Assembly: GCF_055900595.2 (NCBI RefSeq)
Contig: NZ_CM148325.1
Reading direction: 5' to 3' (one strand)
DNA length: 64,000 nucleotides
In this document: positions 58,745 through 60,902 of the stretch, piece after piece
How the letters are laid out: each line of letters begins with the position of its first letter
How positions within the stretch are numbered: position 1 is the stretch's first letter
The notes under the pieces: model-generated
Databases searched by the model: none
Told to the model about the DNA's origin: nothing
The model's input: only the letters and a program-made list of their open reading frames with translations
Program-made: the position numbers and the translations under genes

Positions 58745-60385
58745 ATGCTTAAAAGACGTGATGCTTTTTTAAAGAAAAGCGCGCTGGCAGTGAGTGTGGC
58801 CCTGCTGCTCTCGGCTCAGGCTCAGGCTGTTTTGACAGGGCCTGTTGATGCTAATTCTTCCAGCTTACTGATTGGAGAAAACTCTTTTATTACGAATTCA
58901 ACTGGTACAGCTAATAACACTTTCCTTTTGGGAGGTGGCGCTTTTAACATGGATTCACCAGGAAGTCTTCAGTTTGGCTCTTTTTCGGGAGTGTATAATT
59001 CTCCACACAGTGTCACCCTGGGAAGGGATGCCGGTCAGGCTGAGTCAAAATATGGTGTTGCCATAGGTAAGAGCGCTGAGGTACTTAATTCACAGCAGAG
59101 TGTTGCTATTGGGGGATGGGCTGGAATAGAAAATTCTTCAGGCTCTGTAGCTCTGGGCCATGGCTCACAGGTGTCGGGAGAAAATAACGTGGTATCTGTT
59201 GGTGCCGGGCCTGAGGGATATGGAGAGAGTGTCAAAGGAGCACCGGAAACCCGCCGGATTATAAATGTGTCTGATGGTATCAATAACACAGATGCAGCGA
59301 CGGTAGGGCAACTGAATGAACGATTTGATGATGCACAGGTCTTTTTGTTGCAGACGAATGAAAGAATTGACGAGACAGATAAACGTCTTTCAACAGTTCA
59401 TGCTGAACTCAGCAGGGATATTATTGCAGGCACATCGGCAGCGGTGACGTATACAGATGTAACAGCGCTTGCACTTCAGGATGAGATAAAGGATGGGACG
59501 AACAAAGTACGTGATGAGTTGAAATCACAGGGAGACAGTCTGCGTGGTGAGATAGGCGGTGTATACAGAGATGCCCGTGCTCATACTGACAGTCAGGTCA
59601 CAGCAGTACGTGATGAACTGAAGGCAGAGGGAGACAGTCTGCGCGGTGAGATAGGCGGTGTATACAGAGATGCCCGTGCTCATACTGACAGTCAGGTCAC
59701 AGCAGTACGTGATGAACTGAAGGCAGAGGGAGACAGTCTGCGCGGTGAGATAGGCGGTGTATACAGAGATGCCCGTGCTCATACTGACAGTCAGGTTACA
59801 GCAGTACGTGATGAACTCAGCAGGGATATTATTGCAGGCACATCGGCAGCGGTGGCGTATACGGATGCATCTTCTCTTGCTCTTCAGGATGAAATAAAAG
59901 AAAAAGCGGATGAAACAGTTCAGGTTTCCCGGGCTTATACAGATAAAAGTGTACGGGATGCCCGTAAAGAAGCGAAAAGCCAGGCAGAACATCTCAGCGA
60001 TGTGCTTGTGAAGAACAGGGCGCAGACGGATGCAGCAATAGCCTCAAATACAGCAGCGATAAGGAATAACAGTCATCGTCTGGATTTGACGGAAGCCTGG
60101 CAGAAGATGGCGACAGAGAGAATGAATAATATGCAGGAGCAGATTAAAGAGAACCGGAAGGAGTTAAGGGAGAGTGCAGCCCAGAGCGCGGCACTGGCAG
60201 GTCTTTTCCAGCCATACAGTGTTGGAAAATTTAACGCGACAGCAGCCGTTGGTGGTTACCGTGATGAGCAGGCCATTGCGGTGGGCGTGGGCTACCGTTT
60301 CACAGAGAATGTGGCAGGAAAAGTTGCAGTTGCTGCAGGTGGGTCATCCGCATCGTGGAATGCTGGTGTGAATTTTGAGTTCTGA
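58745..60385 (+). CDS. Trimeric autotransporter adhesin, YadA/Eib-like
   Basis: 546 aa from ATG at 58745 (AGGAG upstream); signal peptide; YadA-like head motifs (SVAIG, SVALG, VVSVGAG); coiled-coil stalk with tandem repeats; C-terminal membrane anchor ending NAGVNFEF. Confidence 0.8.
59507..59803 (+). repeat. Three near-identical tandem 99-bp repeats (33 aa each) inside the adhesin stalk
   Basis: Copies at 59507, 59606, 59705 encode [33 protein letters not shown]; copies 2 and 3 differ at a single base; array flanked by a roughly 50-bp direct repeat (about 59404-59456 and 59813-59865). Confidence 0.9.
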
Positions 60386-60446
60386 CAGGTCAGGATTTAG
60401 ATATCTGTCCCGGGGGGAGTCCCCCGGGATATAATGAGGTACAGAG

Positions 60447-60902
60447 ATGCTGGATATAATCCTGGCGACGAGAGATATTTATTTTGAAAAAGCCCTGCGA
60501 GAGATATTTGGAACCGTAAGCAGTCGAATCAGATATATAGAAGATGCCATATCAGACAGAAGAAGGGTGCAGTCAGGCAGGTCATTCAGATATTATTTTG
60601 TATTCTGTGATGATGAGTATACAGATATTGTTCGTATTCTTTTTACCGGAGAGGCCTGCTGTATTCTGAATAAGTCGATGCTGAATCTGAGAGCGGCCGG
60701 AGGTGTGTTGACGCTGGAAGAGCGCAGAGCGGTACTGAACCGGTATTACAGAGGTTTAAGTATTGCGGAGATTACAGAAGAGACGGGGCAGAATGACAAG
60801 ACGGTATACGGTCATCTTCGTCGTGCACTGCAGCGGTCTGGATTCCGGAAGGGGCGTTTTATAAAGGGGAGAGAAGCGGCGGGGGATTCAGGTGTTGAAT
60901 AA
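60447..60902 (+). CDS. Putative LuxR/sigma-region-4-type HTH regulator
   Basis: 151-aa ORF; C-terminal LTLEERRAVLNRYYRGLSIAEITEETGQNDKTVYGHLRRAL fits a LuxR/GerE-type HTH; N-terminal domain unrecognised. Confidence 0.45.
   Translation: MLDIILATRDIYFEKALREIFGTVSSRIRYIEDAISDRRRVQSGRSFRYYFVFCDDEYTDIVRILFTGEACCILNKSMLNLRAAGGVLTLEERRAVLNRYYRGLSIAEITEETGQNDKTVYGHLRRALQRSGFRKGRFIKGREAAGDSGVE

Follow-up and report, generated by a model that had tools for sequence, protein, structure and literature searches.

Reviews of Escherichia coli trimeric autotransporters list UpaG/EhaG, Saa and the Eib proteins only. YadA of Yersinia combines a signal peptide, a beta-roll head, a neck, a coiled-coil stalk that is non-heptad and turns heptad near the membrane, and a 4-strand anchor. 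The Eib proteins, whose genes are carried by lambdoid prophages beside tail-fibre genes, end in a block made up of a saddle minidomain and a left-handed coiled coil with an immunoglobulin (Ig)-binding segment (PMC12511318). Saa, the plasmid-borne autoagglutinating adhesin of Shiga toxin-producing E. coli (pO113 type), differs in size between strains (PMC7247748), and eYadA of avian pathogenic E. coli (APEC) TW-XM is a protein of 338 amino acids (aa) encoded between cueR and ybbJ (PMC12955052). Here we analysed an adhesin gene (58745-60385) and the helix-turn-helix (HTH) gene that follows it in a 64,000-nucleotide (nt) stretch of contig NZ_CM148325.1 (assembly GCF_055900595.2), hereafter the window. 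An earlier note on this DNA, made from the letters alone, had read the pair as an Eib-like and YadA-like trimeric autotransporter gene with a 99-bp tandem array in its stalk, next to a LuxR-type regulator gene.

The explanation that best fits our findings, and that we consider probable, is that the locus encodes a type Vc adhesin whose recombining repeats vary the length of its stalk, that this protein has a role in adhesion, and that the adjacent HTH gene encodes the regulator of the cassette. Stalk-length change between closely related strains is ordinary for trimeric autotransporters, and nothing in the findings changes how such proteins work. What the analysis adds is a register-neutral stalk unit of nine helical turns, together with a series of natural alleles on an identical backbone, evidence against an Eib or Ig-binding label, and a gene cassette shared with the ORF-156 family of the eib loci.

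The adhesin and its stalk array

The adhesin open reading frame (ORF; 58745-60385, +) encodes 546 aa and has an AGGAG Shine-Dalgarno sequence 8 nt 5' of its ATG. The same ORF is annotated by RefSeq as 'YadA-like family protein' in E. coli F374, the genome of which matches the window at 99.9% identity over 2.8 kb. Residues 1-28 (58745-58828, +) were read off the translation as a signal peptide that combines a basic n-region with a hydrophobic core and an AXA site. The passenger N-terminus (residues 29-192; 58829-59320, +) comprises short YadA-type beta-roll head repeats and then a neck: Pfam placed a weak YadA_head repeat at residues 133-147 and the neck motif YadA_stalk (PF05662) at residues 171-192 (E 3e-5), and SadA head/neck crystal fragments aligned to residues 131-201 (E 2.9e-8). 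A coiled-coil stalk of about 295 residues follows (193-487; 59321-60205, +), with a periodicity that is hendecad in the middle and heptad near the membrane. The last segment is a YadA-type beta-barrel anchor (residues 488-546; 60206-60385 including the stop codon, +), spanned by the full YadA_anchor model (PF03895, positions 1-60 of 60, E 3.8e-16) and matched by the YadA anchor structure 2lme (E 2.2e-17). An AlphaFold2 (AF2) monomer model was poor (predicted local distance difference test score, pLDDT, 42.6) and placed helix at residues 208-394 and 402-486. On its predicted domains, the adhesin is a type Vc trimeric autotransporter of simple 'lollipop' design. The YadA-like assignment made previously is thus borne out by the anchor and neck domains and by the YadA and SadA structure matches.

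The protein shares with YadA the succession of signal peptide, beta-roll head, neck, coiled-coil stalk and 4-strand anchor, as well as a non-heptad stalk that turns heptad near the membrane. It differs from YadA in that identity is about 28-30% and limited to the C-terminus and in having a shorter head and stalk repeats of another kind, and it is not YadA proper (NCBIfam NF033478, 77 bits against a cut-off of 750). Saa, likewise a trimeric autotransporter of E. coli, is close to the window adhesin in size, and its variation in size reflects differing numbers of tandem repeats in the passenger. The Saa repeats are unlike those of the window in sequence and length, and Saa itself was rejected as the identity of the adhesin (24.6% identity over 73% of the protein, E 1e-6, by tblastn). 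So was eYadA, which lies at another locus, has 338 aa and shows 23% identity at the C-terminus only. No paper characterising the window adhesin was found in a literature search. It is an intact and apparently so far uncharacterised trimeric autotransporter of E. coli, and as such it fills a gap in the catalogue of E. coli adhesins. Several genes of Salmonella phages (e.g. phage FSL SP-076, 7413-7673) showed about 38% identity to residues 432-521 of the adhesin, a stretch that takes in the last coiled coil and some of the anchor; their annotation is mostly tail fibre or tail protein, and in two cases 'agglutinating adhesin'.

Tandem Repeats Finder reported a period of 99 bp with 3.2 copies at 59506-59817 (96% matches, no indels, score 575), and a 50-nt core of the repeat unit occurred three times in the window against zero expected from 100 shuffles. 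Using unit boundaries of 59507-59605, 59606-59704 and 59705-59803, the array (59507-59803, +) comprises three units of 33 aa each, which are in frame because the array begins at a codon boundary. Units 1 and 2 differ at 6 bases, and units 2 and 3 at one, a synonymous C>T at unit position 93. The earlier note had described three copies at these positions, two of them a single base apart, which we confirmed, and had placed around them a direct repeat of roughly 50 bp. The flanking repeat is real, although its true size is 106 nt at 86% identity between copies, and the 50 bp correspond to its core. Its left copy (59388-59493, +) encodes 29 aa, its right copy lies at 59796-59901 (+) at a spacing of 408 nt, and an exact 43-nt core is found at 59404-59446 and 59812-59854. 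At the protein level, the middle of the stalk therefore consists of nested direct repeats, with the tandem 33-residue unit set between two copies of a segment of about 35 residues. A 155-aa ORF on the opposite strand (59525-59992, -) largely reads the tandem units in reverse; we rejected it as a gene and regard it, with near certainty, as a side effect of the repeats.

The hydrophobic periodicity was 3.70 residues in a single unit, 3.66 in the array, 3.68 over residues 354-420 and 3.66-3.70 over residues 255-420 as a whole, and 3.48 over residues 420-487. As 3.67 equals 11/3, a 33-residue unit corresponds to three hendecads and to exactly nine turns. A Pfam 'Apolipoprotein' match to the stalk probably reflects the same 11-residue pattern. 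With the standard helix rise of 1.5 Å per residue, each unit is calculated to add about 5 nm of stalk, and a flank-to-flank deletion would leave the stalk about 20 nm shorter. Since a unit makes nine whole turns, its gain or loss should change stalk length and leave the coiled-coil register and the orientation of the head unchanged.

Natural alleles display this variation. A homologue search of some 5.8 billion proteins yielded 1,194 relatives, almost all of them E. coli proteins, and unit counts were taken from the 120 of them that were listed. Among these 120, lengths fell into classes spaced 33 residues apart, with 0, 1, 2, 3 or 4 units. Proteins of 480, 513 and 546 aa (1, 2 and 3 units) were 100% identical over the remaining 447 aa once the units were removed, so that the stepwise 33-residue variation predicted from the array is seen in alleles identical outside it. 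At the DNA level, over about 3 kb, ECCNB12-2 differed from the window by an exact 99-bp deletion and 1 substitution, and EC17CM2 by an exact 198-bp deletion and 13 substitutions; both are complete genomes, and both loci share the IS256 neighbour of the window. The 410-aa allele P0118, from a complete chromosome, carries a precise 136-aa flank-to-flank deletion and one substitution, just what recombination between the two flanking copies would be expected to yield. Mosaic alleles, in which the units are set directly behind a different neck, were also present. Judging from these comparisons, the changes in repeat number are apparently recent, clean and in-frame.

Because the units are nearly identical in DNA, slipped-strand mispairing or unequal homologous recombination would most likely gain or lose whole units, and recombination between the flanking copies would remove the entire array together with one flank (408 nt, 136 aa). 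The outcome would be a population-level series of stalk lengths. By analogy, the adhesin would act in adhesion or autoaggregation, and the reach of its head past capsule and O-antigen, or else surface antigenicity, would depend on stalk length. As alleles with 0, 1, 2 and 3 units occur naturally in a protein that is otherwise the same, the effect of stalk length on function behind capsule and O-antigen lends itself to a direct test. Some genomes carry two or more paralogous adhesin and HTH modules at different chromosomal sites with differing unit numbers, and in strain GF60 copies of the adhesin module lie near 3.35 Mb and 5.24 Mb. Given such copies, recombination between paralogues could also reshuffle stalk modules.

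Relation to the eib loci and the downstream gene

The adhesin was compared by BLASTP with EibA, EibC and EibD, taken from the original P-EibA, P-EibC and P-EibD records in the phage collection, as the earlier note had suggested. Residues 429-546, which hold the last heptad coiled coil and the anchor, aligned to all three at 57% identity, and the head aligned at 33-35% to those of EibC and EibD, in which head and neck are likewise of YadA type; no counterpart of the repeat units was found in any of the three proteins. The anchors are closely related, with 53 of 71 residues (75%) identical between the anchor segment and EibD 441-511, as compared to 69 of 71 between EibA and EibD. Some 150 residues at the C-terminus form a block that hardly differs between EibA, EibC and EibD, and here the window protein departs from them. 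At the saddle (EibD about 349-383) it is identical to EibD at 8 of 35 residues, against 29 of 35 for EibA, and the region reads as a continuous helix. In the columns of EibD 384-418, which Leo et al. 2011 reportedly identified as the IgG-Fc site, identity falls to 6 of 35 with a 10-residue gap, against 34 of 35 between EibA and EibD. The longer EibD crystal fragment gave no match even at E 10, and the short fragment 2xzr matched only at E 0.2.

The window protein is accordingly without the saddle minidomain, does not conserve the Ig-binding coiled-coil segment and has a stalk of hendecad tandem units, which the Eibs lack. The loci differ in setting as well, that of the window lying on a chromosomal island with insertion sequence (IS) elements and aerobactin genes, whereas the eib genes are on prophages. 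Because the anchor is conserved but the C-terminal Eib block is not, the protein appears to be a trimeric autotransporter with an Eib-type anchor and not an Eib by the defining feature tested. Of the Eib-like character claimed in the earlier note, the anchor and the gene arrangement stand, and the saddle, the 384-418 segment and the prophage location do not. With the Eib block unconserved and the island not of phage type, Ig binding and serum resistance are not predicted by the sequence. The 'immunoglobulin-binding protein' labels of this family in databases are likewise unjustified by the part of Eib proteins thought to bind antibody.

The arrangement shared with the eib loci begins in the 61-nt spacer (60386-60446) that follows the adhesin gene. 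A GC-rich hairpin (60406-60431, +) with an 11-bp stem, a 4-nt loop and no T-run after it lies within the spacer, and the RNA fold of 60380-60450 gave -27.2 kcal/mol (z -2.5). A stem_loop is annotated at the same position 3' of the eib genes, where the order is eib, stem-loop, orf-156 and orf-60 in the P-EibA, P-EibC and P-EibD records. In the window, the hairpin is followed by a 151-aa gene (60447-60902, +) with GAGG 7 nt 5' of its ATG, the product of which has a small N-terminal alpha/beta domain and a C-terminal HTH. Homology between this protein and ORF-156 was visible only by pairwise BLAST (22% identity to ORF-156D over the whole length, E 2e-4), profile-profile comparison (hhalign against the ORF-156 family, probability 95.3%, E 2.4e-8, 129 columns) and PHROGs (E 3.3e-4 to phrog_6585, the ORF-156 PHROG). 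Pfam found no match in ORF-156, and a phmmer search of 1.84 billion representatives with the 151-aa protein returned only fragments of itself and weak HTH matches. On these comparisons, the 151-aa protein is assigned as a remote homologue of ORF-156, the product of the gene directly 3' of eibA, eibC and eibD, and by this homology the window locus and the eib loci share an order of adhesin gene, stem-loop, ORF-156-family gene and then, possibly, a small membrane-peptide-like ORF. The family, which also occurs directly 3' of eib genes, is small and restricted to E. coli. The exact 151-aa sequence was present on at least 1,000 contigs, and the identical protein WP_000884153.1 sits 3' of different adhesin alleles in different islands.

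Pfam matched Sigma70_r4_2 at residues 87-130 of the 151-aa protein (E 4e-7) and gave no match to GerE. An AF2 model built on a joint alignment (pLDDT 77, predicted template modelling score 0.75) showed a beta-alpha-beta-alpha-beta-alpha-beta arrangement at residues 1-75 and then the HTH. In Foldseek searches, the HTH superposed on region 4 of extracytoplasmic function (ECF) sigma factors with a probability of about 1.0 (root-mean-square deviation 0.7-0.9 Å, 42 residues), and the LuxR/sigma-r4-like C-terminal HTH that had been proposed for this gene is therefore borne out by both domain and fold match. The protein is without sigma region 2, and an ECF sigma factor was rejected as its identity (region 4 only; NCBIfam 16-21 bits against cut-offs of 42.9-222). 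The best full-length folds were RcsB and FixJ (E 5.6e-3 to 3e-2, none reaching 1e-3), and these weak matches, together with an invariant Asp (D55) closing strand 3, liken it to response regulators of the FixJ/NarL/LuxR type. The N-domain of about 75 residues is, however, too short for a full receiver of about 120 residues. Receiver domains have a metal-binding acidic pair after strand 1, the place taken by T8-R9 here. A truncated, probably non-phosphorylatable receiver-like N-domain is plausible on this model.

The 151-aa protein would most likely be the dedicated transcription factor of the adhesin cassette; regulation of the adhesin is inferred because of the conserved linkage with the Eib ORF-156 family. 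It might perhaps counter silencing of the AT-rich upstream region. Through the ORF-156 link, a function can for the first time be proposed for this family of prophage genes.

Two small and very hydrophobic ORFs occupy the conserved right end of the module: a 25-aa ORF, MLNNVSYIVISVLLLLFFVVFVTNG (60892-60969, +), which overlaps the stop of the HTH gene, and a 31-aa ORF, MKITKAAFIFALSVWSVAVICLLLFVLVVLG (61015-61109, +). RefSeq annotates neither, and both lie inside the part of the module conserved in APEC BEN2908 and GF60. The ORF-60 of the Eib loci has a hydrophobic C-terminus and an equivalent relative position, and the two candidate ORFs may be its positional analogues. The spacer has received independent IS insertions in complete genomes in which the adhesin and HTH ORFs are both intact, namely IS421 within the hairpin in strain GZ2408C, at the equivalent of 60413-60424, and IS5 at the equivalent of 60397-60400, target TTAG (PK8275, PK8261). 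In strain 702/18, an IS3-family element lies at the equivalent of 61108-61113.

Competing explanations

Some 300 bp of 99-bp repeats can mis-assemble from short reads, and the rare four-unit alleles occur on short contigs only, so repeat collapse or expansion had to be considered as the source of the three-copy array, as the earlier note had cautioned. Nothing specific points to it here, and it is effectively refuted: the 631-bp segment with three units was 100% identical in at least four independent complete genomes, which shows that the array is not an assembly artefact, the array region was within the 2.8 kb shared with F374 at 99.9% identity, and one-, two- and three-unit alleles were each found on complete chromosomes. 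The possibility that the adhesin is a genuine Eib, binding IgG Fc and IgA non-immunologically through its stalk and conferring serum resistance, its repeats serving to multiply the sites of binding or to space them out, is less remote than that but still improbable. It would account for the 57% identity of residues 429-546, for the ORF-156 homologue and the hairpin between the two genes as at eib loci, and for those database records that call close homologues 'immunoglobulin-binding protein'. It is opposed by the very segments that ought to carry the function, where a continuous helix with 8 of 35 identities replaces the saddle and 6 of 35 identities with a gap stand against 34 of 35 between EibA and EibD, and further by the lack of a significant match to the EibD crystal fragments, the repeat units without Eib counterpart and the location outside a prophage.

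Two further readings deserve more weight, although we think each rather unlikely. In one, the polymorphism in repeat number is real but selectively neutral, the adhesin gene being carried along, silenced or in decay, by an island riddled with IS elements. Frameshifted IS elements and pseudogenes do indeed abound in the island, the DNA upstream of the gene has an AT-richness typical of foreign DNA silenced by H-NS (a link that we infer), the spacer is interrupted by IS421 and IS5 in some strains, a truncated copy of the gene occurs on a plasmid, and a simple scan of the + strand upstream found no consensus sigma-70 promoter. On the other hand, no length class has a broken reading frame and every change observed involves entire units in frame, the adhesin and HTH genes have stayed together at about 98-99% identity across different islands in many genomes, and the exact 151-aa protein recurs on its at least 1,000 contigs. 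Neutrality is compatible with the best explanation and disputes its adaptive value only. In the other reading, the 151-aa protein does not regulate the adhesin and is a mobile-element regulator, such as one of prophage origin that acts elsewhere, or a non-functional, hitch-hiking remnant. Its ORF-156 relatives (phrog_6585) are prophage genes of unknown function, phmmer found little beyond the protein itself, and IS elements part the HTH gene from the adhesin gene in some strains with both ORFs intact; yet the adjacency of autotransporter gene, hairpin and HTH-family gene is kept across two adhesin lineages that share the anchor only and reside in unrelated mobile elements, a pattern that functional coupling predicts. 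The type Vc adhesin of variable stalk length with its own regulator remains the reading we prefer, and several points weigh against it. What stalk length means for function is entirely conjectural, length change is supported by comparative evidence only, and the four-unit alleles, confined to mosaic backbones, come only from short contigs that may not give a reliable repeat count. The AF2 adhesin monomer is uninformative beyond helix assignment, the best Foldseek E of 5.6e-3 gives the receiver-like fold weak support, and the regulator role draws on synteny and the HTH only. The heavy IS decay of the island and the promoter scan mean that the adhesin gene could be silent, and data on expression, surface display or binding of the adhesin were not found in the searchable literature.

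A broader extension of the preferred reading, which we offer as speculative and give less credence than either of these two, joins the adhesin, the hairpin, the HTH gene and a possible membrane peptide into one mobile cassette. If true, this cassette would be common to the Eib prophage loci and to island-borne adhesins of extraintestinal and avian E. coli, and the family of ORF-156 and the 151-aa protein (phrog_6585) would be a new, E. coli-restricted class of dedicated trimeric-autotransporter regulators in which a receiver-like domain, truncated, is joined to a sigma-r4 HTH. The nine-turn unit of 33 residues would serve as a register-neutral 'spacer brick' by which lineages tune the reach of the adhesin to the thickness of capsule or O-antigen, and the independent IS5 and IS421 insertions in the spacer would be regulatory switches.

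Island context and upstream region

The locus lies in a chromosomal island adjoining ynjB-E, with many IS remnants and the CP4-type genes for a GTPase, DUF932, antirestriction, RadC and YeeU/CbtA proteins; no tRNA gene was found within the window. Aerobactin genes follow the locus in both the window and F374, and in the near-identical F374 locus they are followed by sitABCD, past the point at which the window ends. An IS1 remnant truncates a transketolase gene in the window. This upstream fragment suggested the tkt1 island, which was rejected, as the published tkt1 island differs and is without the adhesin. In APEC BEN2908 and GF60, the module stands beside LacI/PTS (phosphotransferase system)/transketolase genes. 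It spans a transposase fragment, the 835-nt upstream region, the adhesin gene, the HTH gene and about 280 nt more, and conservation with BEN2908 and GF60 ends at about 61184, where IS256-related sequence begins in the window. The repeat-bearing segment was present in 175 of 5,426 complete E. coli genomes, and among the matches listed many were from poultry or human isolates.

The region upstream of the adhesin gene (57910-58744, +) is about 835 nt long and has no gene annotated by RefSeq. Its last 350 nt or so are AT-rich (GC 31-37% over 58400-58800), in agreement with the long, AT-rich upstream region described previously. It is 98% conserved at the BEN2908 and GF60 loci in a different island context, and it is presumed to be a promoter or silencing region. 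An Rfam scan of 56500-61500 at E up to 1 gave one chance-level match only. Terminator-like hairpins lie at 58007-58032 (-) and 58292-58313 (+), and between them a stretch at about 58012-58066 is divergent from BEN2908 and GF60 and includes a 26-nt gap.

Compared with F374, the island part of the window (44659-64000) is 99.8-99.9% identical and the adjoining ynj stretch (35832-43401) 96.4%, a difference that suggests that the island has been shared horizontally between different backgrounds. Two segments of the window are absent from F374, 43402-44658 (1.26 kb) and 50597-51925 (1.33 kb), the latter holding a 402-aa ORF and being IS10-sized. A truncated adhesin copy has also moved onto a resistance plasmid, the conjugative IncI-gamma/K1 plasmid pNDM5_LS003 (NZ_OP290546.1), where positions 20297-21146 match the adhesin upstream region and first 168 codons at 99.9-100% identity, beside floR, under the annotation 'Tat pathway signal sequence protein'.

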